From NCBI RefSeq assembly GCF_046119375.1, contig NW_027362769.1, forward strand, positions 364,994,001-365,058,000: a stretch of 64,000 nt of DNA, given 5' to 3'. Under the pieces are notes generated by a model. It saw only the letters and a list, made by a program, of their open reading frames with translations, ran no database searches and was not told where the DNA came from. Positions 1,228 through 49,533 of the stretch are shown here, piece by piece; positions within the stretch are counted from its first letter, which is position 1, and the number at the start of each line of letters is the position of its first letter. Origin of the DNA: Phyllobates terribilis (lineage: Eukaryota). A program made the position numbers and the translations under genes.

Positions 1228-1697
1228 GATGGAACAGAAAAATCTTTCCTTAGAGAATTTGCTGGCTGGACTTACTGTTATGTTCTGCTACCAGAGCTAA
1301 GGAAAGAGAGGAGATCTGTCCCTACGATAGAACTCAGCTTAATCCCTACGATGTAACAGGGGACCTGATCCTGCGATCAGACCTGCTAAAGTCCTAAGCT
1401 AGTCTGTACGGAGACCTATAGATGTGGGGAAGGAATCCCTACAAGTACTAAGGACTGGGAGGAATATGGGACACCTCCTAACAGAAATAGTAGCAGACAG
1501 ACGAACAAACAAAATATATAGAACATAGAGGTCAGTAGACCAAGCAAACTAACAGAGCAAGACACAGAGCACAGGCTAGCTAGAAAGTAGATATACAATG
1601 AAGTCCAGCAAAGCCAGAAGGGCGGAGCAGGATTAAATAGGCCAACAAGGTCATGTGACCAGCAAAGGAAAAAAAACCTAAGAGCAAGGTTCTAACA
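1..1697 (-). mobile_element. Ty3/Gypsy (Tf1/sushi-like) LTR retrotransposon A, 5' part, runs off the left edge
   Basis: LTR at 1276-1697 with TGTTA...TAACA ends, followed on the minus strand by a gag-protease ORF. Confidence 0.85.
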
Positions 1698-2654
1698 ACA
1701 GTACCTTGCCATATGTCCGGGTTGATTGCAGCGGTGGCAGATGGGTTGTCCGTCCTCGTTGTATCGGTCGCTGGGTTTTCCTCTGGCCGGTGGGGTCCTC
1801 CTTGGTCGGCGCCACGGGATATCCTCCGGTCCGGATGCCAGCTGGATCTTCCCTGGAGTAGAAACCTGTAAAGACTGCACAGTTCGGGTTAGCGCAGCAA
1901 CGCTTTTAGTTAGCTCTTGGACCTGATGGTGCAGGTCTGTAGCCGGGTCATTGTTTAAAGCCTGCGCATCAGCTCCCACAGGCCCTGCCGACAAGGGCGC
2001 CGTCTCCTGGTGGTAAGTGGTAGTAGGGCGTCTGTGGGTCACAGCGCCACCTGGTGCCGGTTCTCGGAGCACCCGGATGGCTCTGTCCTTGAACTGTGCA
2101 AAGTCCAGATGAGGGTCCTGTAAGGCCATTGCCCGCAACTGGGTTCGGTGGGCATTGCAATGTAGACCCTCTATAAATTGTTCAGTCAACAGCTTGTCTT
2201 CGTTTCCCACGCCGTCAGGGTCGGCCTGCTTAATGGCTCTCAGGGCCTCTTGTAGGTTTAGTGCATAGTCCCTTATATTCTCATGTGCTCGCTGCTTGCA
2301 CCCGTAGAATCTAAGCTTGATCTCGGCTGAGGTACGGGTATCAAAGGTGTCCTTCAGCTGGGCTAGTATCTCTGCGACAGTCCTCCTCCTCCCGAGTGGC
2401 CAGGACTTTACCTCCCTTTGGGCTGCCCCTTTTAATTGAGCCACCAGGATGCTCACTTTTTGCTCCTCTGTGAGGGGGTACACCTGGAAGAGGCTATCCA
2501 GCCTTTCTCTGAAGTCATTTAGGGTATGTGACTCCCCTGAGTACTGGGGTAGCCAGGCTGCCCCCGGGATATAGGGCATAGTGAAAGGCATGACCGCAGC
2601 AGCGGTGGCGCTGGCGGTGGCTGTGGCAGTGAAGCTCTCCTCTGTATCCGACAT
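1692..2654 (-). CDS. Gag of element B (PNMA-like, CCHC knuckle CHRCNQPGHMARYC)
   Basis: 320-aa ORF with gag-like helical region and terminal knuckle; the last Cys and the stop come from the LTR of element A. Confidence 0.8.
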   Translation of the reverse strand: MSDTEESFTATATASATAAAVMPFTMPYIPGAAWLPQYSGESHTLNDFRERLDSLFQVYPLTEEQKVSILVAQLKGAAQREVKSWPLGRRRTVAEILAQLKDTFDTRTSAEIKLRFYGCKQRAHENIRDYALNLQEALRAIKQADPDGVGNEDKLLTEQFIEGLHCNAHRTQLRAMALQDPHLDFAQFKDRAIRVLREPAPGGAVTHRRPTTTYHQETAPLSAGPVGADAQALNNDPATDLHHQVQELTKSVAALTRTVQSLQVSTPGKIQLASGPEDIPWRRPRRTPPARGKPSDRYNEDGQPICHRCNQPGHMARYCC

Positions 2655-4142
2655 CCTCCTCCCCCCTAGTGGACCGTGGCCTACCTTGCGATGATCCTCT
2701 TCCGTAGGCCGCGGCTCCGCAGTGGAGCGTCAGGGTTGAGGACCTTCCGTCGCGCTCCTGTGACGTCGGCGTCTGCTGGGCTCCTTCCAGGACCTTACGC
2801 AACGTCCGGACGTGAGGCGGAGCTTCAGTTCTCGCGCGCTTTCAGAGTCTACGCCCCTCTTCTTCCCGCGCGGCGTCCTCAAGATGGCGTCCAATGGCGG
2901 GAAAACTCCACGGATGGCGTGAAGAAGGCAGAAGATGGCGTCGGATGGCGGGAAAACTCCACGGATGGCGGGAAGAAGGCAGAAGATGGCGTCGGATGGC
3001 GGGAATCCTCATCACAGGTAAGTTTAACAGTCTCTTTTTTTTTCAGGCACGCAGTACCCGGTGGTTGCGGGCACCGGATCCTGCCGACTACGCCAAAGTT
3101 GAAGCGCCCCCTGGGCCTCTGTTGTGTAGCGTTGTGCACGCGGGGACTACCCGGAGCCGGATCTGATAGGGGTAGTAGTCATCGTGGCGACGATCCGGTC
3201 CGTGCCCAGGGTGTCAAACCAAGTGGCAGAATTTAGTAGAAGATGTTATAGTGTTCGACTACGCCACCCGTTGAATGCGGTTATGAAGCCGCCGCTGCAG
3301 GGCAGACCGCTGAGGCCGGTGGTACGGTTGTGCAGCGTGGATAGTATAACCCCCAACGGGAGGGGTATGGCCTCAGGGCAGCGGACGTGGATGATGGGGA
3401 TAGCAGAATTGCACGCAGGCACTAGGAACCACTCAGAGACGGTGCGGTGTAGTTCAGGGTCTTTACTGGTGGCAAAGGTAGACCCTCCCAGGCGTACTGG
3501 CTAGCGATCGGGGCCTGGTCAGTCTGTGAGCAGATAGAATCTCCCCCGGCCAGGCGGAGTTGTAGGCCTCCCCGACTTATTGTACTCTCCCTGGCTACCT
3601 TGCTAGAAGCGGGTAAAAGTAGCCCACGTCCCTGAGTGTACCGTGTGGTGCTCACCCGTATGGCCGGTGACTCGGGGCCTTCTGGTAGCCTCCGCTCCAC
3701 AACGGCGGTGCTGGTCCCTTGCGTGTGACCGTGCCTTCGGGTTTCTTGGCCAGAGGACCTGAAATCCCCTGCCGGTCGGTTTCTGCTGCTGGGTATGGAT
3801 CAGTCCCCACTGCCTCGGACTCCGTGTCCGGTGAGATCTCTTCAGTCAGGACGAGCTCTACAGCTTCCAGTCTCTGACCCCTTTTATCACTGCTCCCACA
3901 TAGCTCCTGATCTTGCTCTCTCTGTATCTGCTCCACTCCAGACCAGACTGTGTCTCTGTCTGGGACTCCTCTTCTTCTCCTCTAACCCCGCCTCAGCCCC
4001 AGTTTATATAGGGGAAGTTCTTCCCCTCCCTGGACTGGGCATGAAGTGTTGCATGCTTAGGGTTCCTGACCAGGAGACCTCCCACCTGCTCTCAGACGTA
4101 ATATTGCTATTACTGTGGTAACCAGACACCTGGGGTGCCACA
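1698..4142 (-). mobile_element. Ty3/Gypsy element B: 5' LTR (3100-4142), tRNA-Ser PBS and gag, truncated by element A
   Basis: LTR reads TGTGGCACCCC...GGGGCGCTTCA on minus and is homologous to the solo LTR at 50193-51164; PBS at 3078-3095. Confidence 0.8.
3078..3095 (-). promoter_or_regulatory. Primer-binding site complementary to the tRNA-Ser 3' end
   Basis: TGGCGTAGTCGGCAGGAT 4 nt after the LTR; complement ATCCTGCCGACTACG-CCA matches the vertebrate tRNA-Ser(AGA) 3' end as recalled. Confidence 0.8.
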
Positions 4143-6288: not shown

Positions 6289-9200
6289 GGAAACGCCTGT
6301 GTCTAGGGTCGCTCTGAGAGGTCGCCCTAGACAGAAATAAACCCTCTCCATCTCTAATGCTGTCGGTCTCTATCATCTGTGGGGAGAACCGTTATTTTGA
6401 ACTGACTCAATTTGACTCTGGAGCTGCCGGAAATCTCATTTCTCAGTCCCTGGTAGAGAAATACCGCATTCCCACCAAACCTCTGGCTGTACCCTTATCT
6501 GTCGCCGCCGTGGATGGAGGCCTCTTACCTCATCCCATCCAACTCATCACCGAATCCATAACTTTGCAGGTGGGAATGCTGCACTCTGAGAGCATCTTCT
6601 TTCATGTTCTGCCTGGACTCTCTCACGCCCTCTAGCTAGGCCTACCTTGGCTCCAGAAACACGCACCCGTGCTTGATTGGCAGACCGGAGAAGTTCTTCG
6701 CTGGGGACAGGACTGCCATAAGACTTGTTTAGTTCCCGTTCATCCTGCCCATCCTTCTCCTACCCCAGCCAATCTACCCGGCCTACCGGTTCCCTATTGG
6801 TCTTTTGCGGACGTCTTTAATAAAAGAGAAGCAGAGACATTACCCCCTCATAGACCATACGACTGCCCAATTGACCTGATGCCCGGCGCTACTCCTCCCC
6901 GTGGGCGTATTTACCCTTTGTCCGCTGCTGAGACCCGGTCCATGTCTGAATATATTGAGGAGAATCTGGCCCGGGGATTTATCCGGAAATCTACCTCCCC
7001 GGCGGGAGCAGGCTTCTTCTTCGTCAAGAAGAAGGACGGCTCACTCCGTCCCTGTATAGACTATAGAGGCCTTAACCAGATCACAGTGAAGAATAAATAC
7101 CCCCTTCCGCTCATTCCTGAATTATTTGACCGTCTGAGGGGGGCTAGAATCTTCACCAAGCTGGACCTCCGTGGGGCGTATAATCTGGTCCGTATCCGTC
7201 AGGGGGATGAATGGAAGACGCCATTCAACACCCGGGATGGCCAATATGAATACCTTTTAATGCCCTTCGGTCTCTGTAATGCTCCCGCCGTCTTTCAAGA
7301 GTTGGTCAATGACATCTTCTGTGACCTTCTCTACTCCTGCGTGGTGGTGTACCTGGACAACATCTTGGTCTTCTCTCCAGATCTTCTCACTCACCGGAGG
7401 GACGTTCGTCAGGTCCTGCTCAGGCTCAGGCAGAACCACCTCTATGCTAAATATGAGAAGTGCCTCTTTGAGCAGACCTCGCTTCCGTTTCTGGGCTACA
7501 TAATCTCTCAGACCGGCCTACAAATGGACCCTGAGAAACTGTCTGCCATCCAGAAGTGGCCCCGACCAGAGGGGTTGAAGGCTATTCAGCGGTTCCTGGG
7601 CTTCGCCAACTACTACCGCCTCTTCATTCCGCACTTCTCTTCCCGGACTGCCCCTATCTCGGCGCTCACCCGTAAGGGCGCTAATCCCAGAGAATGGCCG
7701 CCCGAAGCAGAGGAGGCCTTCCTTTCCTTAAAACGAGCTTTTTCCTCCGCCCCTGTGCTGCATTGTCCGGACGGCAACAAACAATTCTTTCTAGAAGTCG
7801 ACGTTTCCTCCTCCGGAGCCAGAGCAGTACTTACCCAAAAGTCGTCTTCCGGAAGAATGGTAACCTGCGGCTTCTTCTCCAAACTCTTCTCCTCTTCTGA
7901 GCGCAATTATTCTATAGGAGACCGAGAATTGTTGGCCATTAAGCTGGCACTGGAGGAGTGGCGTTACCTGCTCGAGGGGGCTCTTCACCCGGTAATAATT
8001 TACACGGACCACAAGAACTTGGCTTACCTCCAGAGTGCCCAGAGACTTAACCCGCGCCAAGCCCGGTGGTCCTTGTTCTTCACCCGCTTTAATTTCATTC
8101 TTCATTTTCGCCCGGCTGACAAAAACATCAAAGCTGATGCTTTATCCCGATCCTTTTGGTCTCTGATCTTGAGGAGGAGCCTAAACACATCATCGACCCC
8201 GCCAAAGTAATGCAGGTGGCCCCCGTGAATCTAAATCGTCTTCCACCCGATAAGACGTTCGTATCTGTTCCTGATCGTGAGAGGGTTCTACACTGGGGAC
8301 ACTCGTACAAGCTAGCTGGCCATGCTGGTCAGAAAAAGACCCTCCAGCTTATTTCCCGGCATTACTGGTGGCCTACCCTGCACAATGACGAAATAGACTT
8401 TGTTTCAGCCTGTGTGTCCTGCGCCCGCAACAAGGTTCCGAGACATCTGCCAGCCGGCCGTCTCCTTCCTCTTCCTGTACCTGCTGCCTCGTGGCAGCAT
8501 ATAGCTATGGACTTTATTACGGACCTCCCTGGCTCTGCCGGTTGTACGGTCATATGGGTGGTCGCTGACCGCTTTTCCAAAATGGCTCACTTTATTCCCC
8601 TGCCGGGTCTCCCGTCTGCATCAGAGTTAGCTAAAGACTTGATTCATCATGTCTTCCGTCTTCATGGTCTTCATCTCCACATTGTATCCGACCGAGGGGT
8701 TCAGTTCACCTCTCGTTTTTGGCGAGCCATGTGTAAACTACTGGGGGTCACCTTGGACTTTTCTTCTGCTTTTCACCCACAGTCCAATGGCCAAGTAGAA
8801 CGGATCAACCAAATTTTAACCAGTTACCTCCGGCACTTTGTTAATGCTCACCAACCCGACTGGGTGGATCTTTTACCGTGGGCCGAATTTTCTTACAATA
8901 ATCACGAGAGCGAATCTTCCTCCAAATCCCCGTTTTTTGTAGTCTTCGGTCAGCATCCTCGGATCCCGTTTCCCTTCTCCGCTTCGGTGGACAATCCGGC
9001 TGCGGAATCTCTCGTTAACGAATTTTCCTCCATTTGGGAAAGTACCAGATCTGCACTTCTTCAGTCATCCGAGCGGATGAAAAAACAGGCTGACAAAAGA
9101 CGTCTGGATCCACCACAATTCCGTCCTGGAGATAAGGTCTGGCTCTCGTCCAAATATGTCCGGCTCAAGATTCCTTCCTACAAGTTAGGGCCTCGGTTCA

Positions 9201-9706
9201 TCGGTCCACTGGAAGTTATCAAACAGATCAATCCGGTGGCCTATAAATTGAAACTCCCGGCCAATTTGCGGATCCCTAACTCCTTCCATGTATCTCTACT
9301 CAAACCCGTGATACTTAACTCTTTTTCCAAGTCTACAGGTACGCCTCCTGCTCCGGTTTCCGCTGAAAATGAGTTTGAGGTAGAGAACATTCTGGCCACC
9401 AAAAGGGTAAGAGGAAAATCCTTTTTTCTAGTGGATTGGAAGGTGTTTGGTCCTGAGGAGAGAACATGGGAGCCCCGGGAGAACATCCATGCCCCTCTCA
9501 TCCTTGATAAATTTCTCTCCGGCCTAAAAAAAGGGGGGCCTAAAGGGGGGGGTACTGTAGCGTCGGCGTCCCTGCCTCCTGCTAGGCAGAGACGCCGTTC
9601 CCCTCACCTCTCTGCTCCGGGCCCGGCGTCTTCCTCCCGCTCTGCTGGCAGCGCGCGCTGCTTCCCGGCCTCTGTGCTTAGGGCGCGCGCGCTCCCCCTC
9701 TCTTAA
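6289..9706 (+). pseudogene. Disrupted pol of element C (protease, RT, RNase H, integrase, chromodomain)
   Basis: FDSGA protease motif; stop at 6633-6635; RT motif YLDN instead of YLDD; frameshift near 8156-8210; integrase MDFITDLP and PQSNGQVERIN; C-terminal chromodomain FEVENILATKR..FLVDWK. Confidence 0.9.
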
Positions 9707-10664
9707 AGGGGCCGCGCGCGTCGTCCTAAGGAGTCCCCGGCCAATGGCCGGAGGACCTCACCATATATAAGGCACCTCCTCCAAAATGGAGGTGCCCGAG
9801 CAATGTTGTTGCAAAGCCTTTCAACTCTGCTTCAGCCCTCAGGTCCCGTTACCAGTTACCTGCCAGTCACCTGCCAGATTCCTGCTTGATACCTGCCTGA
9901 TTCCTGCCTGATATCTGCTTACCTGCTTGCTATCCTGTGGTCCGACAGTCTGCCTACCAGCACCTGCCAGTCTGTCTATGGATCAGTCCGCCTGCGGACC
10001 AGGAAGTACCCACCAGATACCTGCCTGATACCTGCCTGCCTGTCCAGAGACTCTTACTCGCTCACCTGGGAGCGCTCACCTGCTACCTGCCTGCTAGCCT
10101 ACCTGGAGGCTTAGCCGTCACTTGCTGTGACCACCTGCCTGTCCAGAGACTCTTACTCACTCACCTGGGAGCGCTCACCTGCTACCTGCCTGCTAGCCTA
10201 CCTGGAGACTTAGCCGTCACTTGCTGTGACCACCTGCCTGTCCAGAGACTCTTGCCCGCTCACCTGGGAGCGCTCACCTGCTACCTGCCTGCTAGCCTAC
10301 CTGGAGGCTCTGCCGTCACTTGCCGTGACCACCTGCCTGTCCAGAGACTCTTGCCCGCTCACCTGGGAGCGCTCACCTGCTACCTGCCTGCTAGCCTATC
10401 TAGAGACTCTTTCCCTGCTGTCACTTGCCGTGACCACCTGCCCGTCTAGAGACTCTTACCCTGCTGTCACTTGCCGTGACCATCCGCCTGTCAAGAGACT
10501 GTCCCCGTCACTTGCCGTGACTTGCTGCCCTTCTACCCAGAGACTGTCCCTGTCACTTGCCGTGACTAACTGCCCTCCTTCCCTGGGAACCACCCGCTTC
10601 CTTACAAGGACTGCCCCTTTGTATAGTTGCTCAGAGGTTCCACCTCCCAGACCCGTTACACGGT

Positions 10665-16682: not shown

Positions 16683-18317
16683 TGCAGTATGTTGTGGGTC
16701 TTGCACAGGGAAGGGGGGGAAGATGATGTACATGAAATGTGCTGATGCTTTATGCACAGGACTGCCTGCATGTTGTGGGGCTTGCACAGTGAAGGGGGTG
16801 ATGCATGTGTGACGCCTCTACTCAGAGAAGCCCGTGTTTTACCCTGGGTGATGGGGGACTCGGTGTCGGGCCCTGTGATGGAGAGATGGGATGCAGCCGT
16901 GGCCTGGGCCTGACTCGTGCTCAGGGCCGTCACATTAGAAAGAGATGCTGTGGGCTTGTCCGGGTTGAGTGGCTTATTTTAATGACTACGCCACCTGTGG
17001 TGCCTGGTGAAGGGTCACCAGCGCCGCTGCAGTCCGCTGAGGCCCGGTGTCATGGCGGCTAAAGTTCTCGCTGCTCCCCACAGGCGGAGCAAGGCCTCAG
17101 GGCAGGCAAACAGGAAAGAGAGGGGGTAGTAGTGTTGGGAGTACGGGCACCGCGTCGCATGGTATGCCGCGTAATGAACAGTCCGGAGGCCATAGGGGTG
17201 AACTTCCAATGCTTTACTCACTTAGAGATGTCAGCGGGAAGGCGTCTCCCTGCTCCCTGCGGAGTCCTGCGGCCACCAGGGACGGGGGTCCGACTACCTC
17301 CGAGAAAGTCCAGTGTTCGGTAGCGACCCTACACCAGAGTGTTCCTGCACTATAAACTTCACCTTTTCCCGTCTGTGCGTGTGTAGATAGGCCGGGTCTC
17401 CCTCTGAGCTCCTCTCAGGACTAGGGCACGGGTGGCAATTCCTCTCCATCCGATGCCCGGTGGGATCCTCAGGGCCTAACCGGGCTTTCCCGTCCAGGAC
17501 ATAGAGTACAAGGTCGGGTGTCGAGGGCCGGTACCCCTCTTGCAGCCGGAATCCCTCTGAATAGATCAGGTAGTCGAGGACAGGTGGCGTGCTCCGCTCC
17601 GTCTGCATCCTCCCCGGGACCCATTTTCTGGGGAGCCACACTCTAAAGCTCCCAGGGCCTTCTTGATCCTGGTCCTTGGCCGGGTTGAGACATTACTTGT
17701 CTACAACCTACCTCTCGTCCCAAGGCCAGGGTACGAGGGCTGTGTCCCTTACCGGCGCAGGCCCACACAGGATCTGCGCTCCCGGAGGGAAGTCACATTA
17801 CACACAGTATTTTGACTGCAAAGAGACAGCCGACAGACTAGCAAAGGCTAGACAAAGGACCAGAGAAGAACAACAGACCAAGATCAAAGATGGCTTTCTA
17901 TTAAATATGAAATTTAAGGTGTAACTAACTTGTAAGTCCTCCACCCACACCCACTAACTGCTTCCTACCACTTTGTGTTCCCCAGTCTCCCTGTAACCAG
18001 GGGAGCAACACCTAGTGCATACTAGCTCCCTCTGGTGGAGAAGTGTGGTGTTGGATGCAAGGCTGGGTCGCGACCATCACACCGGGCTTACCTCAGAGGA
18101 GGAACACTACACTCCATTAGAGAAGCGCAGCATTCCTGTGGCGGTCGAACCCTCAGGGGCGCCACATTACCCCCTGGTAAAACACAGCACGTCCGCGGGC
18201 TGCAAAAGAAGCAACACCCAGGATGTTTTCTTTTTATGATAACATGCAAAACTATCATCCCTTTATGGGAGGCACATTTCTTAAACGTTACATAACAAGG
18301 TGAATAGTATAAAAGTA

Positions 18318-20351
18318 TCTACTATATAATTGTCTTATCCCGTCTGTCTGTCTGTCTGTCTGTCTATCTGTCTGTCTTTCTGTCTGTCTGTCTTTCTGTC
18401 TGTCTGTCTGTCCTGGAAATCCCGCGTCGCTCATTGGTCCGGCAGAGGCCAATCAGCGCCGCGGGATTTCTAAAAAAAGATGGCGGCCGTTAGCGGCTCA
18501 TCTGACGGACGGAGGTCAGCGGCGATGCAGCGGGGAGATGAGCGGCGCTAGCAGCACAACTACCCCGACCGGCGCCGCTGAACTCCATGCGACTAACGTC
18601 GGAAGATCAGCGGCTTGGCCCGCTGATCTCCCGACAGCAAGTGTGAACGGAGGACCGGGGAGCGGCGCCGCTGGTCGGGATGCTTCTGCTGTGAGCAGCC
18701 GCTCATCTCCCAGCTTCTCGCAGCAGAAGGAGCCGCACAAGCAGCGCCGCTCCCCGGTCCTCGCTAATACGGAGCTGCACAAGCAGCGCCGCTCCCGGGC
18801 CCACACTAATACCACGCTGATTGGTCGCGGTGGCCGGCCGCGACCAATCAGCGAGATGGGCGGCAAATTTAAACGCCGCTCTGCTGATTGGTTGCTGCCG
18901 GCCACCGCGACCAATCAGCGAGATGTCCGGCAAATTTAAACGCCGCTGTGCTGATTGGTCGCGGCCGGCTACCGCGACCAATCAGCGAGATGGACGGCAA
19001 ATTTAAACGCCGCTCTGCTGATTGGTCGCGGTAGCCGGCCGTGACCAATCAGCGAGATGGGTGGCAAATTTAAACGTTGCTCTGCTGATTGGTCGCGGCC
19101 GGCCACCGCGACCAATCAGCGAGATGTCCGGCAAATTTAAACGCCGCTCTGCTGATTCGTCGCGGTGGCCGGCAGTCCGCGACCAATCAGCGAGATTGGC
19201 GCCAAATTTAAACAACGCTCTGCTGATTGGTCGCTGACGCCAGACGCGACCAATCAGCGAGATTGGCGCCAAATTTAAACAACGCTCTGCTGATTGGTCG
19301 CGGACGGCAGACGCGACCAATCAGCGAGATTGGCGCCAAATTTAAACAACGCTCTGCTGATCGGTTGCGGTGGCCGGCCGCGACCAATCAGTGATTTTGG
19401 TGCCAATTTGAAACACCGCTCTCCTGATTGGTCGCGGTCACCGGCCGCGACCAATGAGCAGTATTGGCGCCAAATTTAAACCCCGCTCTGCTGATTGGTC
19501 GCCACCGCTGGCCACGACCAATCAGCGATTTTGGTGCCAAATTTAAACAACGCTCTGCTGATTGGTCGCGGTCGCCAGCCGCAAACAATCAGCAGTATTG
19601 GCGCAAAATTTAAACCCTGCTTTGCTGATTGGTCGCGACTGCCGGGCGCGACCAATCAGCGATTTTGGCGCCAAATGTAATCTCCGCTCTGCTGATTGGT
19701 CGCCAGCCGCGACCAATCAGCAGTATTGGGGCCAAATTTAAACCTCACTCTGCTGATTAGTCGCAACCACCTGTCGTGACCAATCAGCGATATTGGCGCC
19801 AAATTTAAACACCGCTTCGCTAATTGGTCGTGGTGGCCGGCCGCGACCAATCAGCGATATTGGCACCATATTTAAACACCGCTCTGCTCATTGGTCGCGG
19901 TTACCAGTCACGAATAACCAGCATTATTGGCGACAAATTTAAACACCGCTCTGCTGATTAGTCGCGGCCGTAACCAATCACCATTACTGGCGCCAAATTT
20001 AAATAACGCTCTGCTGATTGGTCGCGACCGCCGGCCGCAACCAATCAGCATTATTGCCGCCAAATTTAAACCTCACTCTGCTGATTGGTCACGTTCGCTG
20101 GCCGCGACCAATCAGCATTATTGGCGCCAAATTTAAACCCCGCTCTGCTGATTAGTCGCGACCGCCGGCCGTGACCAATCTGCGATATAGGCGCCAAGTT
20201 TTAACACCGCTTTGCTAATTGGTCGCGGTTGCTAGCCTCGACCAATCAGCGATTTTGGCACCAAATTTTAAAACCGCTCTGCTGATTGCGCCCGGTCGGC
20301 CGCATACCTATTCTAGAATACCCGATGCGTTAGAATCGGGCCAACATCTAG
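18318..20351 (+). mobile_element. Non-autonomous Helitron with a ~67-bp hairpin array
   Basis: A|TCTACTATATAA 5' end; hairpin CCCGAT..ATCGGG at 20321-20340; CTAG|T 3' end; no TSD. Confidence 0.85.
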
Positions 20352-20751
20352 TAAAATTATAAAAGTGCTAGCATTTTTCCAGAGACATTATTGCAGACAG
20401 ACAGGTAAAGTGCAAGGACACCGAGTCAGTTCAGAAGTGCGAGGGACCGGTCCTAAACCCTCCACGTTGGCCCTGGGGTGGCTGCAAGGCATGCAGATCC
20501 AGAGTTGGACCTCCCGGAGAGCCACCCTAACAGGTTTTTCTTCTGAGGTTTTGAGGTAGAGAATATCCGCGGTTTTGCATAAAACCAATATGGAGCACCT
20601 AAGGAGATGCAAACTATATACAGGGTGAAAGAGTCTGTCTGCTAGTCCGCAGGGACAGGTGTCTCTAGAAACCGGGTTAGAAATTAAGCATAATAGGAAA
20701 AGTCAACTTTTAAACTTGTAAACAAAACTGCAACAACAGCCGGGGGCTGCT

Positions 20752-20913
20752 TTAAACTTCGGGTTGCCGTCTTGGAAAGGGCTCATTCCTCCCGACGGTG
20801 GCTAGCCGGTCCCCTGAGGCTGAGCGCGGGGTGGCGTCACTCCCGGACACTTTGTGTACGTCCAGGGCGTACCACCCACGCTCCCCCTGGTGGCGAGTGA
20901 AAGTCACTGTGTC
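20752..20913 (-). pseudogene. Cold-shock-domain protein of element D, C-terminal part (strands beta4-beta5)
   Basis: Manual translation just past the CR1 tail: DTVTFTRHQGERGWYALDVHKV...PEV*. Confidence 0.7.
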
Positions 20914-21122
20914 ACATAGGTGTCACATAGTTAGTAAAGCCGAATAAAGACTTGCGTCCATCAAGTTCGACCTGTTAGGTCTGTAATTGCTAAAGTTGAT
21001 CCAGAGGAGGGCAAAAACCCCAAATGATTTGGCCAATCTTCACCTGAGGAAAAATTCCCTCCCGACTCTGAAACCAGCAGTCAGAATAAATCCCTGTATC
21101 AACCTACTATTTTATTCTATTG

Positions 21123-24023
21123 TTAAGTATATGCAGAAATCTGCCTGGTATCTAGAAAAGCATCCAGTCCCCGCTTGAACTGGTGTAGTGAATCCGACAT
21201 TACCGTCTCCTCACTCAGTGAATTCCATATTCTCACTGCTCTTACCGTAAAGAACCACTTCCTATGCTGGTGCTGAAACCTTTTCTCTTCCAGTCTTAGT
21301 GAATGCCCTCTTGTTACCGTAATATCCCTCCTTTTGAACAAATCCCGGGCAAGGTCTCTATACTGTCCCCTAACATATTTGTACACATTTATTATGTCCC
21401 CCCTCAACCTTCTCTTTTCCAGGCTGAATAGTCCTAGTTTTGCCAACCTCTCTGGGTATTGCAGTCCCTCCATTCCCCTTATTAATTTTGTTGCCCTCCT
21501 TTGTACCTTTTCAAGCTCATTTATATCCTTTCTATATATTGGGGCCCATAACTGAGCACAGTATTCCAAGTGTGGTCTGACCAGTGCTTTGTACAGTGGA
21601 AGAACAATGTTCTCATCCTTTGCAGCTATACCTCTTCTGATACATCCCATTACCCTGTTTGCCCTTACAGCAGCGGCCTGACTTTGGGCACTCCAATTTA
21701 GTTTGCTATCAATCAAGATGCCCAAGTCCTTCTCCATCTCTGAATTCCCCAATGATTTCCCATTCAGTGAGTACTGGTGACTTCCATTTTTCCTTCCCAT
21801 ATGTATGACCTTACATTTCTCCTCGTTAAACCTCATTTGCCATTTAATGCTCCACCTACCCAGCTTATCCAAATCCCTCTGTAGGTCTGCACTGTCCTCT
21901 TTTGTATTAATTGTTTTACATAACTTTGTGTCATCTGCAAATATTGATATTTTACTATTTATCCCGTTGACTATGTCGTTAATAAAGATATTAAATAACA
22001 TTGGGCCTAGTACAGACCCCTGTGGTACCCCACTAGTGACGCTTACCCAATCTGAGTATATTCCATTTATAACCACCCTCTGCCTTCTATCCTTTAGCCA
22101 GTTAGCTACCCACTTGCAGACATTTTCCCCCAGCCCCATCATTCTCATTTTGTATACCAACCTATTATGTGGCACGCTATCGAACGCTTTTGAGAAGTCG
22201 AGATACACGACATCCACTGGTTCCCCCTGATCTACTCGAGAGCTCACCTCCTCGTAGAAGTCAATCAGGTTTGTTTGGCAGGAGCGATTCCTCATGAATC
22301 CATGTTGGTTCGGGGTTAATAGATTATTAGCATCAAGATGCTCCATGATTGCCTCATTAATAAAGCCTTCAAAAATTTTGCCCACAACGGACGTCAGACT
22401 CACCGGCCGATAGTTTCCGGTGATACTTTTTGCTCCCTTTTTGAATATTGGCACTACATTCGCCTGTCGCCAATCAAGTGGTACAGACCCAGTCTCAACA
22501 GAGTCCTTAAATATAAGATATAATGGTCTGTCTATCACATTACTTAGTTCCCTTAGTACCCGTGGGTGTATGCCATCAGGTCCTGGTGATTTGTTTATTT
22601 TAATGTTACTGAGGCGTTTCTGTACCCCAGCTTGGGTTAGATTTGTCATACTTAGTGGAGGATTAAGCTTGTCACTTCTCATTTCGCCTGTTAGTTCTTT
22701 TTCCTTTGTGAAAGTTGACGAAAAAAATTTATTTAATAGATTAGCTTTATCCTCATCTTTCTCTATGATTTTGCCTTCATCACTTTTTATCGGTCCAATA
22801 TTATTCAATTTAATCCTTTTACTATTTATATACGTAAAGAACAGTTTGGGATTTGATCTACTTTCCCTAGCAATACGTCTCTCTGTTTCCTCCTTTGCTA
22901 TTTTTATTTGTTTTTTGCAGGTTCTCGTTTTTTCCTTGTAACACATTAGTGCCTCCTTACTGTTTTCCTGTTTTAATCTCTTGAATGCCTCTTTTTTGCT
23001 ATTTAACGCCCCTTTTACGTTCTTATTCAACCATATTGGTTTCCTCTTATTTCTGGCCCTTTTATTCCCATACGGTATATACCTCTCGCACTGAGTATTC
23101 AGAATTCTTTTGAAGGTTTCCCATTTACTATTCGTATTTCCTTGATTAAGAACTTTGTCCCAGTCTATAAGTTGAAGGTTTTCTTTCAGCTGATCAAACT
23201 TCGCCCTCCTAAAGTTTAATGTTTTAGTTGTTCCCTTATTGATAACCCTACTGAAGGGCATTTTGAAATTGATAATATTATGATCGTTATTACCTAGGTG
23301 CCCCCCTATCTGTACCTCAGTTATTCTATCAGGCCTATTAGTCAATATTAAGTCCAACACTGCCTTCCCTCTCGTTGGTTCCTGCACTAGTTGGGAGAGA
23401 TAATTATCCTTGATATTTGTCAAGAACCTTTTTCCTTTCTGCGATCTACAGGTTTCTGTTTCCCAGTCAATATCCGGGTAGTTGAAGTCCCCCATTACAA
23501 TCACCTCATTATGTTTTGCTACTTTGTCTATTTGTCCTAATAGCAGTTTCTCATTCTCATCTGTTATATTGGGTGGCTTATAGCAGACCCCCAGTAATAT
23601 TTTATTATTATTTTTTGCCCCCTCTATCTCTACCCACATGGACTCGACCCCCTCTTCTCCCTCTCCTATATCTTCCCTTAGTCTGGGCTTTAGACGTGAC
23701 TTTACATATAAGCAGACTCCTCCGCCCTTCCCCTGTTTCCGGTCCCTTCTAAATAAACTATAATCTGTTAAATTTACCGCCCAGTCGTAGCTATCGTCTA
23801 GCCAAGTCTCTGTTATACCTACGATGTCATACCTCTCCTCCGATATAAGCGCCCGCAGCTCATCCGCCTTATTGGTCAGGCTTCTTGCGTTGGTCAGCAT
23901 GCAAGATAAAACTTTGGGGTTATTTAGCATCCTATTCTTCTCTAACGATCTAACTGTACTATCCCCACCCACCTCTCCACCCTCATTATATTCACTTCTC
24001 CCCTTCCCCCTTGCTTGCCTCAC
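21123..24023 (-). CDS. CR1 ORF2: APE endonuclease plus reverse transcriptase
   Basis: 966-aa uninterrupted ORF; GITETW, GDFN, YLDFSKAFD, GVPQGSVLGP, FADD motifs. Confidence 0.95.
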   Translation of the reverse strand: MRQARGKGRSEYNEGGEVGGDSTVRSLEKNRMLNNPKVLSCMLTNARSLTNKADELRALISEERYDIVGITETWLDDSYDWAVNLTDYSLFRRDRKQGKGGGVCLYVKSRLKPRLREDIGEGEEGVESMWVEIEGAKNNNKILLGVCYKPPNITDENEKLLLGQIDKVAKHNEVIVMGDFNYPDIDWETETCRSQKGKRFLTNIKDNYLSQLVQEPTRGKAVLDLILTNRPDRITEVQIGGHLGNNDHNIINFKMPFSRVINKGTTKTLNFRRAKFDQLKENLQLIDWDKVLNQGNTNSKWETFKRILNTQCERYIPYGNKRARNKRKPIWLNKNVKGALNSKKEAFKRLKQENSKEALMCYKEKTRTCKKQIKIAKEETERRIARESRSNPKLFFTYINSKRIKLNNIGPIKSDEGKIIEKDEDKANLLNKFFSSTFTKEKELTGEMRSDKLNPPLSMTNLTQAGVQKRLSNIKINKSPGPDGIHPRVLRELSNVIDRPLYLIFKDSVETGSVPLDWRQANVVPIFKKGAKSITGNYRPVSLTSVVGKIFEGFINEAIMEHLDANNLLTPNQHGFMRNRSCQTNLIDFYEEVSSRVDQGEPVDVVYLDFSKAFDSVPHNRLVYKMRMMGLGENVCKWVANWLKDRRQRVVINGIYSDWVSVTSGVPQGSVLGPMLFNIFINDIVNGINSKISIFADDTKLCKTINTKEDSADLQRDLDKLGRWSIKWQMRFNEEKCKVIHMGRKNGSHQYSLNGKSLGNSEMEKDLGILIDSKLNWSAQSQAAAVRANRVMGCIRRGIAAKDENIVLPLYKALVRPHLEYCAQLWAPIYRKDINELEKVQRRATKLIRGMEGLQYPERLAKLGLFSLEKRRLRGDIINVYKYVRGQYRDLARDLFKRRDITVTRGHSLRLEEKRFQHQHRKWFFTVRAVRIWNSLSEETVMSDSLHQFKRGLDAFLDTRQISAYT

Positions 24024-24057
24024 ATCCCACCTATTTCCGTGGTTTCCCCCCCCATCT

Positions 24058-25026
24058 CTAGTTTAAAAACTCCTCCAACCTATTAGCCATCTTCTTCCCC
24101 AGCACCGCTGCACCCTCCCCATTGAGGTGCAGCCCGTCCCTACGGTAGAGCCTGTAGCCGACAGCGAAGTCGGCCCAGTTCTCCATGAACCCAAACCCTT
24201 CTGCCTTGCACCAACTCTTTAGCCACTTATTCACCTCCCTAACCTCCCATTGGCGCTCCTGTGTGGCTCGCGGGATTGTTAGTATTTCTGAGAAAACTAC
24301 CTTGGAGGTCCTTGCCCTAAGCTTCCTACCTAGATCCCTGAAATCATTTTTAAGGACCCTCCATCTACCACTCACTTTGTCATTGGTGCCAATGTGGACC
24401 ATGACCGCTGGGTCTTCGCCAGCCCCACCCAGTAACCTGTCAACCCGATCCGCGATGTGCCGGACTCGAGCGCCAGGGAGGCAGCACACCGTTCGGCGAT
24501 CCCGGTCTTTGTGACAGATTGCCCTGTCTGTCCCCCTAATAATAGAGTCACCCACTACCAGGACCTGTCTAGCCTGCCCTACACTTCCCCCCTCCCCCTC
24601 ATTACTGGAGCATACACTCCCCCGGCGGTCAGAGGATCTGTCGTGCTCCAATAATGCCGGTTCTGAACCAGCCTTCCTATACTTCTTCCCTCTATCCCTT
24701 CTAACTGTTACCCAGCTCCCTGCCTGTTCAGCCTGCGCTTCCCCACTAAGCTCCACCCCCAGTGTTGACCCATTGAGTGTCTGCTCGGTGAGCAGCAAAC
24801 TCCGTTCCATGTTGTCGATGCTCCTCAGTACCGCTATCTGAGCACTTAGATCCAGGATTTGGGCTTCCAAGTGCACGATATGCTCACATCTCTCGCAGCA
24901 GTATGGATCCCTGAGCGGTAGCTCAGGGAATGCATACATTGCGCAAGATGTACACTGCACGGCTCCGGCCAACATGGACGTCATTCTAAATATGGGGATA
25001 CAGTCAGTATATATGTACAAGTACAA
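24058..25026 (-). CDS. CR1 ORF1: Cys-rich N-terminus plus SGNH/GDSL esterase-like domain
   Basis: 322 aa; VVGDSII, HIGTND and DGLHLN motifs. Confidence 0.9.
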   Translation of the reverse strand: MYLYIYTDCIPIFRMTSMLAGAVQCTSCAMYAFPELPLRDPYCCERCEHIVHLEAQILDLSAQIAVLRSIDNMERSLLLTEQTLNGSTLGVELSGEAQAEQAGSWVTVRRDRGKKYRKAGSEPALLEHDRSSDRRGSVCSSNEGEGGSVGQARQVLVVGDSIIRGTDRAICHKDRDRRTVCCLPGARVRHIADRVDRLLGGAGEDPAVMVHIGTNDKVSGRWRVLKNDFRDLGRKLRARTSKVVFSEILTIPRATQERQWEVREVNKWLKSWCKAEGFGFMENWADFAVGYRLYRRDGLHLNGEGAAVLGKKMANRLEEFLN

Positions 25027-25039
25027 AACACAATTATTT

Positions 25040-25780
25040 ATATATAGGTGTATGGACGGGGATCAATTAGGGATGTGCAAGTGTATCGATTAGATATCGG
25101 CGCGGGATCAGTTAAGTATGGACGGGGGATCAATTAAGTATCAATTAAGTATGGACGGGGGATCAGCTGAGTGGGTCAGGTGGATTAATTAAGTATGCAC
25201 GGTGTGTCAATTAACTATGGACTGGGATCAATAAGTATGAACTGGGGAAATAATTAATTGTGGACTAGGGAATCAATCAATTAATTATGGACAGGGGGTT
25301 TAATTAAATAGGATTTGGGGTAAAGCAAATAAATAGGTATGGACGGTGGGTCAATTAACTAAGGACTGGGGATCAATAAGTATCAATAATATCAATAAAT
25401 ATGGACTGGGGAAATAATTAATTGTGGTCTGGGGAATCAATCAATTAATTATGGACAGGGGTTAATTAAATATGGTGGGGGATAAGGCAAATAGATAGGG
25501 ACTGGGGATGAGTAAAAGTGGACAAGGGGAATCTATTAAATAGGACAAGGGGGATCAATCAATTATGGGCTGGTGGGGTCAATCATTTAAATGTGGTCAG
25601 GGGGATCAATTTAATATGGACGGGGGGTGGTCGGGGATCAATTAAATGAGGACGGGGGGGTCAATTTAATGTGGTCAGAGGGATCAGTTAAATATGGACA
25701 GGGGTGTTCAGGGGAATCAATTTAAATATGGACGGGGGGGTAATCAATTAAATATGGACTAGGGAATACAATACAATTAC
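25040..25780. repeat. Degenerate minisatellite in the CR1 5' UTR
   Basis: Recurrent TATGGAC..GGGGATCAATTAA units. Confidence 0.7.
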
Positions 25781-26070
25781 AATACAGATACAAATACAAT
25801 ACAGTACAGTACACACTTGGGTTCAGTAGGGCCGCTTATCGCGGCCTCCTGCCCCTCACTCACCTCCTCTAGGGACGCTGCACGCTATCACAGCGCGCTT
25901 GTCCCTCCGGTCGCCTCTTACCGGTCCTCCTGATCACCTCCTGGTCACCACCACCTGGCACCCTCCGCTGGCCGGCACTGCACGCTGCCACAGCGCTCTC
26001 TTGCGCTCGTCCCTCCGGTCGCCTCCTACTGGTCCTCCCGGTCCGCTCGGTCACCTCCGCCTGGCTCTCC

Positions 26071-26400
26071 TCCTGGGAAGAGGTTCCGACCGGGGTGTCC
26101 CTTCTTGAGGCGCTGCTCGACTTCCCGCTGGCTGACGAACACATCGTCCTGGAACTGGGGACACCGGATGAACCCCCACCCCGCCTCACGATGAAAACGG
26201 ACGACTTGGCCTTCGTACCGGGGACTGGGACGGGTGGCCTCCTCCTGACGCGCCCGAGTTTTTGCAGCTTTGGTCCTGACCTCGAGGTGCTCGCAGCGCT
26301 GCTCCCGCCGACGCTGCTCCCATGCGAGCTGGAATATCTGGTCGCTGCACCACTGGATCCTCCTCCGCGCTTCAGCCCTGGTCTCCCGGGGGAAGCCCAT
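26071..26400 (-). pseudogene. Cold-shock-domain protein of element D, N-terminal part (strands beta1-beta3)
   Basis: YEGQVVRFHREAGWGFI...DDVFVSQREV with RNP1- and RNP2-like motifs. Confidence 0.75.
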
Positions 26401-27002
26401 TAGGTCGCCCCCCTAGTTTTCCCAGGCCCAATCCTCAGCCTCGGGCCAGGTTCCTGCCATGCAGGTAGCGGGGTTAGAACGGGTTGCTGCGAGTCCTCTG
26501 TAGACGCGGACCAGTCCGGGTTGGAGCCGGTAGTTTCCTCTGCAGCTTCAGGCACCTCCGAATCAGGGTTTGGGCGGCATCGCAGGTCCTCACACATGGC
26601 TGCCGATTCCAGCTCTGGAGCCAACGCTTGCTCCCAGGTGACCTCGTGGGGAATCAGGTACTCCGACATGAGGTCCAAGATAGTCACGGTAGGCTCTGCA
26701 GCCAGGGCAGGGGTTGCACACTCACCCGCCGCTGGGCCGCTCTCGACCTCTGTCACCGAGTCGACTTGTCCTGGGACCTCTACTCCTTGACGGCGGTCCC
26801 GGATACGCAGCAGCATCTCTTCCCGCCACGCAGCCGTCGCCGCCTCCTGGGCCTCTATCTGCCTTCTTAGGAGTTCCGGAGCTTCCTGCTGGAGAAATGT
26901 AATATCTCCCGGGGTCAATACGCTGCCGCCTTGCTCTCTGCCGGGTGAAGGGCCTGAACCGGGTTCAGTAGATGCGTGGTCTTGCTCCCCAGAGGCATCC
27001 AT
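26400..27002 (-). CDS. 200-aa acidic ORF of element D, unknown function (gag position)
   Basis: Lies between the PBS and the CSD ORF; short helical segment ELLRRQIEAQEAATAAWREEMLLRIRDR; no recognised family motif. Confidence 0.4.
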   Translation of the reverse strand: MDASGEQDHASTEPGSGPSPGREQGGSVLTPGDITFLQQEAPELLRRQIEAQEAATAAWREEMLLRIRDRRQGVEVPGQVDSVTEVESGPAAGECATPALAAEPTVTILDLMSEYLIPHEVTWEQALAPELESAAMCEDLRCRPNPDSEVPEAAEETTGSNPDWSASTEDSQQPVLTPLPAWQEPGPRLRIGPGKTRGAT

Positions 27003-28425
27003 GTCTGCCTCCGTTGACTGCCAAGCTCCAACTGCAATGGCCGAACCTTGTTGCTTTGCTTCTTCCTCCTCTCTCGGGGCGGTTCCTGGGCGGAATGCTG
27101 ACAGGCCCGCCTTTGTTCAGCCCATCCAGTTTGATGGGCATTACCCCGCGGACAGTCTCTGATGGAAGGGGCAGTCCACCTTTTTGGCGCCAAGCGGGAG
27201 CCCAGCCCACGATGGGAGGTGTTCAAAGACAGTCTTTTCACAGCATTATGGCGTCTGTTCTTCTTGGGCGGGCGCCATTTTAAGTGTAAACAACAGTTCA
27301 AGGTGTAAGGCACACAGTACCCGATAGCAATGGGCACTTCTTCCTTTGCTGCGGGCACGCGATCCTGCCGACTACGCCAGGTTGTGACGCCTCTACTCAG
27401 AGAAACCCATGTTTTACCCTGGGTGATGGGGGACTCGGTGTCGGGCCCTGTGATGGAGAGATGGGATGCAGCCGTGGCCTAGGCCCGACCCGTGCTCAGG
27501 GCCGTCACATTAGAAAGAGATGCTGTTGGCTTGTCCGGGTTGAGTGGCTTATTTTAACGACTACGCCACCTGTGGTGCCTGGTGAAGGGTCACCAGCGCC
27601 GCTGCAGTCCGCTGAGGCCCGGTGTCATGGCGAAAGTTCTCGCTGCTCCCCACAGGCGGAGCAAGGCCTCAGGGCAGGCAAACAGGAAAGAGAGGGGGTA
27701 GTAGTGCGGGGAGTACGGGCACCGCGTCGCATGGTATGGCGCGTAATGAACACTCCAGAGGCCATAGGGGTGAACTTCCAAGGCTTTACTCACTTAGAGA
27801 TGTCAGCGGGAAGGCGACTCCCTGCTCCCCGCGGAGTCCTGCGGCCACCAGGGACGGGGGTCCGACTACCTCCGAGAAAGTCCAGTGTTCGGTAGCGACC
27901 CTACACCAGAGTGTTCCTGCACTATAAACTTCACCCTTTCCCGTCTGTGCGTGTGTAGATAGGCCGGGTCTCCCTCTGAGCTCCTCTCAGGACTAGGGCA
28001 CGGATGGCAATTCCTCTCCATCCGATGCCCGGTGGGATCCTCAGGGCCTAACCGGGCTTTCCCGTCCAGGACATAGAGTACAAGGTCGGGTGTCGAGGGC
28101 CGGTACCCCTCTTGCAGCCGGAATCCCTCTGAATAGATCAGGTAGGCGATGACAGGTGGCGTGCTCCGCTCCGTCTGCATCCTCCCCGGGACCCATTTGC
28201 TGGGGAGCCACACTCTAAAGCTCCCAGGGCCTTCTTGATCCTGGTCCTTGGCCGGGTTGAGACATTCCTTGTCTACAACCTACCTCTCGTCCCAAGGCCA
28301 GGGTACGAGGGCTGTGTCCCTTACCGGCGCAGGCCCACATAGGATCTGCGCTCCCGGAGGGAGGTCACATTACACACAGTATTTTGACCGCACAGAGACA
28401 GCCGACAGACTAGCAAAGGCTAGAC

Positions 28426-29938
28426 CAGGGGTCCTCAAACTACGGCCCGCGGGCCACATGCGGCCCGCGGAGGACTTTTATCCGGCCCGCCGGGCTATGG
28501 GTGGAGGAGAGGGGAGCGGTGTCAGCACCCGCCCTTCTCCCCCGCTTGCTCAGGGCCCCGGCAGGCGGATACTTACCTCTCCCTGTGCCTCTGCAGATCC
28601 GCTGTCTTCCTGCTCTGCGCTTTCTGTGACGTCTCAGGTCAGAGGATGCGGTGACGTCTTTACACCGCACCCTCCCGAGTGCCGTCACAGGCAGCGCAGA
28701 GCGGGACGACGCCGCCGCGACGCTGGAGTCCAGACCAGAGTAGGGCAGCGGCAGCGGCAGCAGGTGAGAAGTGAGGTGAGTATTGGATTTTTTTTTTTTT
28801 TTTAATGTATGGAGGCATAGGTCATTATATGGAGGAGTGACATCCTGCAAGGGGTATAATATGGGGAGGTGACATCCTGCATGGGGCATGATATGGGGGG
28901 TGACATCCTGCATGGGGCATTATATGGGGGGGTGACATGCTGCAAGGGGTATAATATGGGGGGGTAAACATCCTGCATGGGGCATGATATGGGGGGGGTG
29001 ACATGCTGCATGTGGCATTATATGGGGGGGGGGGTGACAAGCTGCATGTGGCATTATATTGGGGGGGTGACATGCTGCATGGGGCATTATATGGGGGGTG
29101 ACATGCTGCATGGGGCATTATATGTGGGGGGTGACATGCTGCATGGGGTATAATAAAGACAGGGGAGAGTTATCCTGCATGGGGCATTATATGGGGGGTG
29201 ACATCCTGCATGGGGCATTATATGGGGGGTGACATCCTGCATGGGGCATAATATAGGGGGGGTGACATGCTGCATGGGGCATAATATGGGGGGGTGACAT
29301 GCTGCATGGGGCATAATATGGGGGGTGACATGCTGCATGGGGCATTATATGGGGGGGTGACATGCTGCATGGGGCATTATATGGGGGGGGGAACAGCCTG
29401 CATGGGGCATTATAAGGGGTGGAACAGCCTGCATATGGCATTATAAGGGGGAAACAGCCTGCCTATTTGGAACATTTACCTGCCCATTGAGGACCTATGC
29501 TGCCTATTGGGGACATTTACCTGCCTATTGGGGACCTATGCTGCCTATTGGGTACATTTACCTGCCTATTGGGGACCTATGCTGCCTATTGGGGACATTT
29601 ACCTGCCTATGGGGGACATTTACCTGCCTATTGGGGATATTTACCTGCCTATTGAGGACCGATGCTGCCTATTGGGGACATTTACCTGCCTATTGAGGAC
29701 CTATGCTGCCTATTGGGTACAGTTACCTACCTATTGAAATACCGGTTGATTTAACTTTACTTGTTCTTCATTTTAAATATTGTATTTGTTCCTGTATTGT
29801 TTTTTTTACTACAAAATAAGATATGTGCAGTGTGCATAGTAATTTGTTCATAGTTTTTTTTAAAAACTATATTCCGGCCCTCCAATGGTCTGAGGGACCG
29901 TGAACTGGCCCCCTGTTTAAAAAGTTTGAGGACCCCTG
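28426..29938. mobile_element. Non-autonomous hAT (Charlie-like) element inserted in the 5' LTR of D
   Basis: Perfect 16-bp TIR CAGGGGTCCTCAAACT; 8-bp TSD GGCTAGAC; empty site present in the other LTR; internal ~30-bp and ~20-bp minisatellites. Confidence 0.95.
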
Positions 29939-30263
29939 GGCTAGACAAAGGACCAGAGAAGAACAACAGACCAAGATCAAAGATGGCTTTCTATTAAATA
30001 TGAAATTTAAGGTGTAACTAACTTGTAAGTCCTCCACCCACACCCACTAACTGGTTCCTACCACTTTGTGTTCCCCAGTCTCCCTGTAACCAGGGGAGCA
30101 ACACCTAGTGCATACTAGCTCCCTCTGGTGGAGAAGTGTGGTGTTGGATGCAAGGCTGGGTCGCGACCATCACACCGGGCTTACCTCAGAGGAGGAACAC
30201 TACACTCCATTAGAGAAGTGCAGCATTCCTGTGGCGGTCGAACCCTCAGGGGTGCCACACATG

Positions 30264-38087: not shown

Positions 38088-38156
38088 TAAGCCTGTACAT
38101 ATAACAGGCGCCTCCAGCTCCGGCCTCAGTGGTTTGTTGTAGTTCCGCAGCACACG

Positions 38157-49478: not shown

Positions 49479-49533
49479 GGTGGTGGCTCTTAGAAGAGCC
49501 TTTGGGGTGATGGCGAGCAGCAGACGGANNNNN

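Follow-up and report, generated by a model that had tools for sequence, protein, structure and literature searches.

A stretch of 64,000 nucleotides of the genome of the poison frog Phyllobates terribilis (positions 364,994,001 to 365,058,000 of contig NW_027362769.1, assembly GCF_046119375.1; hereafter the window) carries a broken copy of a retrotransposon bounded by long terminal repeats (LTRs), in which pol is absent and the only gene encodes a protein with a cold-shock domain (CSD, PF00313). This architecture was observed in uninterrupted copies of the element, and the CSD is under strong purifying selection in two families of such elements. We put at roughly 55% the probability that the predicted CSD protein of this pol-less family binds the RNA of its own element in cis and helps it to enter Ty3/Gypsy particles.

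The element occupies positions 30,259 to 16,808 of the minus strand and comes to about 4.7 kb without its later inserts. Its structure is that of an LTR retrotransposon: the paired LTRs (1,359 bp each, 97.9% identical, i.e. 1,328 of 1,356 aligned bases) have TG...CA ends, and a short target-site duplication, a tRNA primer-binding site (PBS) and a polypurine tract (PPT) are all present, as stated in the preliminary description of this DNA. The internal DNA amounts to 2.0 kb once a CR1 insertion and a Helitron-like insertion are set aside, and not to the approximately 2.2 kb given there.

The CR1 insertion splits the gene within the CSD. The search of the genome with the upstream half of the gene yielded 34,336 first-look candidates, which is not a copy number, and 150 of these were scored. 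Five of the top 20 matches correspond to the window locus and to four duplicates of it on the same contig (99.2-99.7% identical), in which the frame runs into the same CR1 end. In 14 of the remaining 15, the frame stays open through the site of the CR1; the other has a stop ahead of it. The two halves of the CSD, previously joined in frame by removing the CR1 on paper, are thus kept in frame in uninterrupted natural copies, the point on which that proposal had been staked beforehand. Frames of 402-417 codons occur in six of these copies. The natural gene comprises 364 codons from the first ATG (402 from stop to stop) and replaces the open reading frame (ORF) of 163 residues originally given, which is found in the window copy because of a frameshift near position 26,460.

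Taken alone, the upstream half of the gene matches positions 2-37 of the Pfam CSD model with an E value of 1.6e-4, below the cut-off, and the downstream half gives no Pfam CSD match. All five natural frames examined pass the cut-off of 27 bits (27.2-32.0 bits, model positions 2-65). At the C-terminal end of the protein in uninterrupted copies, a predicted 49-residue helix is followed by the CSD. The AlphaFold model of the C-terminal 142 residues, based on a 23-row alignment, shows this helix and a five-stranded barrel with a predicted local distance difference test (pLDDT) score of 87.6; the model obtained from a single sequence was poor (pLDDT 57). The top Foldseek matches to the model are CspB, CspC, CspA, and YB-1 (E about 1e-6), and a VIA comparison gave a Z value of 11.8 and a root-mean-square deviation of 1.5 over 67 residues. 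The assignment of the domain, initially made from its motifs, is therefore borne out by the Pfam matches and by the predicted oligonucleotide-binding (OB) fold.

With the family profile, the Y-box domains score highest of the solved matches (48.8 bits, versus 42 for CspA), and the CSD is about 30% identical to that of YB-1 and 33-37% identical to CspB. A Y-box orthologue or retrocopy would be expected to have a CSD nearly identical to that of vertebrate YBX, together with a Y-box C-terminal tail, and at about 30% identity the element protein does not qualify. The element CSD may nevertheless descend from a Y-box gene; the donor is not settled by a CSD tree of 26 rows and 73 columns, which shows long-branch joins. 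The high scores of dinoflagellate proteins come from many repeated domains and were therefore rejected as a sign of transfer. The aromatic residues of the RNP motifs are retained in the element CSD, while the Trp of strand 1 and the His of RNP2 in YB-1 are not. The protein is predicted to bind RNA. The N-terminal part is acidic, rich in Pro and Ala, and very variable in length; neither a CCHC motif nor a Pfam match was found in it. In the ESM Atlas, the whole protein gave only scores under 0.8 and the N-terminal 200 residues gave nothing.

Selection across copies, a check suggested at the outset, was assessed by counting the variants per codon column, splitting them into private and shared ones, and comparing nonsynonymous with synonymous changes (dN/dS). 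A first run was set aside as biased, since protein similarity and long frames had been the criteria for choosing its copies. The set for family A, to which the window copy belongs, consists of 15 of 20 copies picked without regard to ORFs, five truncated, rearranged, or divergent ones being left out; that for family C consists of 13 of 14 full-CSD copies picked by means of a motif (see below), one more distant copy being left out. The shared variants of family A give a dN/dS of 0.12 for the CSD, 0.24 for the helix and the motif adjoining it, 0.37 for the N-terminus, and 0.27 for the whole ORF, which contains no shared stops, as compared with 0.94 for the 3' untranslated region (UTR). The control frames gave 1.3-1.9 when shifted in the sense direction and 0.46, with four shared stops, in the case of the antisense frame mirroring third positions. 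When CpG codons were removed, the ORF value was 0.22. In family C, the corresponding values are 0.11 (CSD), 0.14 (motif and helix), 0.41 (N-terminus), and 1.10 (3' UTR), and the lengths of indels are multiples of three in 36 of 36 cases in the ORF versus 41 of 202 in the UTR (counted against one reference, the events not being independent). The fact that the CSD is under strong purifying selection in both families means that the protein mattered in the lineages that were copying.

Families of cold-shock elements and a candidate helper

When the genome was searched with the Pfam CSD model, host CSDE1-like copies came up first, followed by several further types of repeat. The pol-less CSD families number at least five (A-E). 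Families B, C, D, and E have LTRs of their own (1.0-1.25 kb), internal regions of 1.4-2.6 kb, and no long pol frame; the primer site of family D differs. Judging by the identity of LTR pairs, family A (92-98%) is older, and families C (97.7-100%) and E (98.8-99.4%) are young. A 31-nt motif preceding the PPT is common to families A, B, and C and has 21,326 exact matches, while the reversed control has none. Twenty loci carrying this motif, all sampled within the initial 39 Mb of one contig, comprised 14 with a full CSD, one with a partial CSD, four with the CSD deleted, and one fragment, and long frames (410-767 codons) are kept in all 14 full-CSD copies.

In a search of 1.84 billion proteins, five single-domain relatives were present among the best 150 matches. 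They are named records of Phyllobates terribilis, Ranitomeya variabilis, R. imitator, and Anomaloglossus baeobatrachus, labelled as uncharacterised or "CSD domain-containing" and known from protein records alone. Word-based protein searches returned one unrelated multi-CSD protein and one record already found, and do not exclude a range extending beyond poison frogs.

Several further arrangements were observed. About 39 same-strand matches to the PPT-LTR junction of family A occur within 2 Mb of contig C1 (438.8-440.7 Mb), which suggests a tandem array, and head-to-tail tandem elements apparently sharing one LTR are frequent in the CSD families. On contig C4 (791.48-791.52 Mb), three divergent CSD frames form a 40-kb cluster in which no LTR pair was detected; the RNP2 His is kept, as seen in two of them, and the cluster may represent a relative of the mobile CSD that is old or has been kept by the host. 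Intron-poor, duplicated CSDE1/UNR-like copies are present on contig C1 (734.44 Mb), exon-like pieces on contig C2 (702.8 Mb), and one further locus resembles a decayed Y-box copy. Four sequencing runs, their type guessed or unknown, gave contigs covering 30 of the 30 bins of a family C stretch; with neither an RNA label nor a DNA control, these contigs do not bear on expression in either direction.

Some members of family C carry a 606-nt deletion between 9-nt direct repeats, which removes the helix and the CSD. Splicing was rejected as its cause, since the ends correspond to the direct repeat and not to splice sites. The deletion junction was found at 624 sites versus 12,392 intact ones, i.e., about 5% (624/13,016). 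In a tree comprising 14 copies with the deletion and 12 full ones, the deletion is scattered (7 changes, at least 5 of them forced), and 83 of 500 shuffles gave a number of changes as low as that observed. A minor, scattered junction is what would be expected if the deletion recurs and spreads poorly.

The claim that the family is non-autonomous stood up in samples picked in several ways. Twenty copies picked for their long frames all consist of LTRs and a short internal region, the 3' LTR being in view in 19 of them. The ORF-blind sample was made up of 20 of the first 100 copies listed among 323 exact matches to the LTR end plus PBS: gag-pol was found inside none of these elements (the pol matches at three loci lie outside the element), an internal region of the CSD-family type was present in all 20, and the 3' LTR was seen in 16. 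Gag-pol was likewise found in none of the 20 loci picked by the pre-PPT motif, where 3 kb were read upstream, and in none of 20 loci from the 1,715 matches to the PPT plus LTR start, where 1.3 kb were read upstream and 15 loci showed a CSD match, one of these being short. The combination which marks an autonomous Ty3/Gypsy element, a gag capsid with protease, reverse transcriptase (RT), RNase H, and integrase (PR-RT-RH-IN), was present in 0 of 20 copies picked by the LTR end plus PBS and in 0 of 40 picked in the other two ways.

A Ty3/Gypsy family with a truncated member in the window is likely to be the helper, because a primer site, a leader hairpin, and, in two of the CSD families, an LTR end are common to both. 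This family gave 65,955 first-look candidates; among its members are complete elements whose gag-PR-RT-RH-IN frame spans 1,723 codons and shows no CSD match. Its LTR pairs are 98.3-99.8% identical, which indicates a young family, and it has a CCHC knuckle scoring below the Pfam cut-off. It occurs either with the single 1,723-codon frame or with separate overlapping gag (352 codons) and pol frames. The terminal LTR bases are common to this family and to families B and C, with 250-380 nt of the LTR end at 71-75%; 63 nt of the PBS and leader are at 90% in the case of family C; and the PBS and the PPT are common to families A, B, and C. A PNMA-type gag was rejected as the helper of family A, since it belongs to an unrelated family with a PBS or LTR match in 0 of 30 cases, and a PPT-pattern search for a family A helper turned up an ORF-less family instead. 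Membership of the Gmr1-like clade was also rejected for the candidate helper: integrase lies upstream of RT in Gmr elements (PMC4131045), whereas the order here is PR-RT-RH-IN.

A complex between the helper capsid and the core of the family C protein was predicted with a score of 0.42, versus 0.01 for the best control; the runs agree on at least 52% of the contacts and the pLDDT of the partner is at least 65. The pass mark used was reached by 51 of 78 solved pairs and 2 of 108 mismatched pairs, while scores of 0.60 or less at this mark include only five of the 78 solved pairs and all four passing mismatches. The model thus gives weak support to a contact between the two proteins.

Possible roles of the cold-shock protein

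Copying of these elements would take place in trans, by the Gag, RT, and integrase of the helper, since they are devoid of pol and their signals are shared with an autonomous family. The protein would act mainly on the RNA encoding it, because selection among copies would be weak on a product which all of them shared freely. Its CSD would bind and chaperone the single-stranded RNA of the element, and the conserved motif and long helix may contact the helper capsid. Among the three roles initially considered (nucleocapsid replacement, co-packaging, and modulation of host RNA), co-packaging would seem to be the best fit and nucleocapsid replacement the least supported, since the helper has its own CCHC knuckle and the element is without a recognisable capsid. 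In a more specific form, which we propose only tentatively, an element without gag or pol encodes a hijacking adaptor, namely a CSD on a helical arm tying its own RNA to the helper capsid; such adaptor elements would have radiated in poison frogs into several families with tens of thousands of copies. If this were true, it would amount to a third survival strategy for LTR parasites.

Several observations weigh against packaging in cis. Families A-E have other residues in place of the YB-1 strand-1 Trp and RNP2 His, and RNA binding may therefore be weaker or different. In family A, once CpG codons are left out, the contrast between shared and private variants in the CSD is not significant (p 0.33, dN/dS 0.18). 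What family A has in common with the candidate helper is restricted to the PBS region, the basal stem of the hairpin, the PPT, and a weak U5 match, and no helper with family A's own LTR ends was found among the sampled elements. The complex score of 0.42 falls in the range in which the tool is more often wrong than right. In addition, the CSD is deleted in 4 of the 20 motif-picked loci and partly lost in one. Four deleted rows cluster in the tree, where there are just 12 full copies and the nearest of these is only 90-93% identical; they may represent a deleted lineage that spread. Lastly, a related pol-less LTR family, whose internal DNA is about 1.1 kb long, shows no CSD at any of the 14 loci read; this family lacks a long ORF, differs in its primer site, and has a PPT of the autonomous type, and its pattern has 76 exact matches. 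Since it has spread, the CSD is not required, and the CSD gene appears to be a booster rather than a strict need.

The alternative which survives best, although we find it doubtful, is that the protein acts in cis outside packaging: it would coat, store, or shield the RNA of its element, favouring stability, masking, or escape from piRNAs or decay, and packaging would depend on RNA signals alone. Oocyte Y-box proteins mask mRNA, and it is the Y-box domains which match the family profile best among solved structures. Any role in cis would account for the selection and for the scattered deletions, the relatives without a CSD still spread, and Gypsy RNA is reported to be abundant in poison-frog ova (PMC6278860). 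What a masking role leaves unexplained is the conservation of the motif and helix (dN/dS 0.14-0.24) and the prediction, weak as it is, of a capsid contact.

A role in trans on host or helper RNAs, with the protein serving for example as a silencing suppressor or a translation modulator raising the transposition of the whole group during bursts, is unlikely. It would agree with the capture of CSDs by 46 bird endogenous retroviruses (ERVs), which has been read as aiding proliferation (PMC12287698), and the CSD-less derivatives and the ORF-less family could then be free riders; but deleted forms should in that case take over, yet the common junction amounts to about 5% of the sites, and long frames persist in each of the full-CSD motif-picked copies.

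It seems quite improbable that the protein is a highly diverged Gag, with the CSD in place of a zinc-knuckle nucleocapsid, and that the element builds or co-builds a particle of its own. The gene does occupy the gag position, the nucleic-acid-binding domain lies near the C-terminus in families A-C, the N-terminal part is under moderate constraint (0.37-0.41), and Bik-1 and Bik-2 are described as pol-less elements encoding only Gag (PMC12067270). There is no Pfam capsid match in the protein and no similarity to the helper Gag (best E 0.58), however; the acidic, Pro/Ala-rich N-terminus of very variable length does not speak for a Gag, and the model of the C-terminal 142 residues shows a single long helix before the CSD, not a capsid bundle. 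Passive cargo, either a host fragment captured by template switching, as LTR elements are reported to do with host mRNA (PMC5131818), or what a deletion has left of an ordinary gag-pol element, is largely refuted by the selection results (dN/dS 0.11-0.12 and frame-keeping indels) and is scarcely tenable in view of the five or more families with different LTRs and no gag-pol remnant, as well as the identity of only about 30% to Y-box domains.

Anatomy of the window

The coordinates of the element and of the candidate-helper member are given in Table 1. Assignment of the PBS to tRNA-Ser was checked in the genome: 5 of 20 stretches examined are tRNA-Ser genes, 4 of them with AGA or TGA anticodons. 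The CR1 boundaries are blurred by a short similarity between the CR1 ends and the target. This CR1 appears to be full length, with both ORFs open; ORF1 encodes a GDSL esterase and ORF2 (979 codons) an endonuclease and an RT. The insertion in the 3' UTR, which we take from its ends to be Helitron-like, contains 67-bp tandem repeats and is missing from uninterrupted copies of the element; that in the 5' LTR is presumably hAT-like, again from its ends.

Table 1. Positions in the window of the cold-shock element, its insertions, and the truncated candidate-helper element
Feature	Positions	Strand	Remarks
5' LTR, PBS-Ser, and gag of truncated candidate-helper member (Ty3/Gypsy)	1692..4141	-	
Target-site duplication, 4 bp	left copy 16804..16807, right copy 30260-30263		basis: sequence
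3' LTR, 1,359 bp, TG...CA ends	16808..18166	-	97.9% identity to 5' LTR
PPT and upstream motif common to CSD families A, B, and C	18167..18210	-	
Helitron-like insertion in 3' UTR, later arrival	18318..20351	+	TC...CTAG ends, between A and T
3' untranslated internal region	20352..20751, continuing at 18167-18317	-	dN/dS 0.94 (family A)
3' part of the gene, with the last two CSD strands, a short tail, and the stop codon	20752..20913	-	
CR1 long interspersed nuclear element, about 5.16 kb, inside the CSD	about 20914..26071	-	ORF1 24058-25062, ORF2 21123-24062
5' piece of the CSD: strands 1-3, RNP1-/RNP2-like motifs, loop helix	26072..26217	-	
Motif conserved in families A-C and predicted 49-residue charged helix	26218..26430	-	dN/dS 0.24 (A), 0.14 (C)
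N-terminal part of the gene from first ATG, acidic, Pro/Ala-rich	26431..27002	-	frameshift near 26,460 in window copy
Predicted leader hairpin directly after the PBS	27317..27358	-	7-bp basal stem common to family C and the autonomous family
PBS, complementary to the 3' end of tRNA-Ser (AGA/TGA)	27362..27379	-	
5' LTR, split by a later insertion	27383..30259	-	
hAT-like non-coding insertion inside the 5' LTR	28426..29938	.	terminal inverted repeats and 8-bp duplication

Counting the window segment itself, there are at least five near-identical duplicates (99.2-99.7% over 3.2 kb; contig C9, about 363.4-366.0 Mb), and the CR1-interrupted element recurs in each of them along with the truncated gag element. 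What was duplicated is probably a histone gene cluster, in view of an ORF at 38091-38813 (+) which we take to be histone H1-like and the start of another, presumably H2B-like and partly masked, at 49309-49983 (-). A second Ty3/Gypsy element directly adjoins the LTR of the candidate helper at about 4142-10300 (+); its gag, RT, and integrase frames are broken up, and its end resembles a chromodomain. A transposase fragment, presumably of the hAT type, lies at 57744-58841 (-).

Comparison with known systems

The usual view of non-autonomous LTR elements is that they are non-coding or carry gag only. TR-GAG and BARE-2 are without pol, and the gene they retain is gag; elements of the TRIM, LARD, and MaLR internal types are non-coding, keep their LTRs, PBS, and PPT, and borrow their enzymes. 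A group of non-autonomous LTR elements having a selected CSD protein as its only gene appears to be undescribed. The literature search, which covered openly accessible papers, gave no description of this group; the families may be listed in Repbase, Dfam, subscription papers, or supplements without any note of the domain. The presence of CSDs in bird ERVs was already known (PMC12287698). Word searches in the main texts of two poison-frog genome papers and of a survey of frog LTR elements gave no mention of the cold-shock domain (PMC6278860, PMC11152451, PMC4131045).

Given the more than 20,000 matches to its motif, the group may have had a real share in the expansion of poison-frog genomes and may make up some of their unclassified LTR fraction; 66,046 LTR elements are given as "Unknown" in D. 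tinctorius (PMC11152451). The "CSD-containing" genes predicted in poison-frog annotations may accordingly be transposon genes. These elements also point to an unknown protein-level step in the way retrotransposon parasites compete for packaging or escape silencing, and make the question of action in cis or in trans testable.

Among the systems compared, the zebrafish BHIKHARI elements Bik-1 and Bik-2 are likewise non-autonomous, with one intact gene and no pol, but that gene is described as gag, whereas the frog gene encodes a host-type RNA-binding OB fold with no recognisable capsid or CCHC knuckle (PMC12067270). Cassandra, as presented in bioRxiv 2023.07.14.548913, resembles the frog elements in being a non-autonomous LTR element which retains a host-derived module; like TRIM, LARD, and MaLR elements, it differs from them in having no selected RNA-binding protein gene. 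The LTR-mediated retrocopies, in which a host mRNA lies between LTRs and is recopied non-autonomously, offer a plausible route of origin, although those reported are young, low in copy number, and close to their parent genes, while the frog gene is old, diverged, selected, and radiated (PMC5131818). The protein shares with YBX1/YBX2 and CspA/CspB its predicted fold and RNP1/RNP2-like motifs, and its long loop before strand 4 resembles that of Y-box proteins; it differs from them in the replaced Trp and His positions, the long helix in front, and its being encoded by a mobile element.

A close parallel is that of the 46 bird ERVs, in which a CSD has been captured several times and the PF00313 domain likewise lies inside an LTR retroelement (PMC12287698). 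As described there, they are retroviruses that were identified and classified through their RT, and the position of the CSD varies, whereas the frog elements carry no gene other than that of the CSD, their link is with Ty3/Gypsy, their copies number in the thousands, and selection has been demonstrated. Taken with these ERVs, the frog families add to a pattern of repeated capture of CSDs by LTR retroelements.

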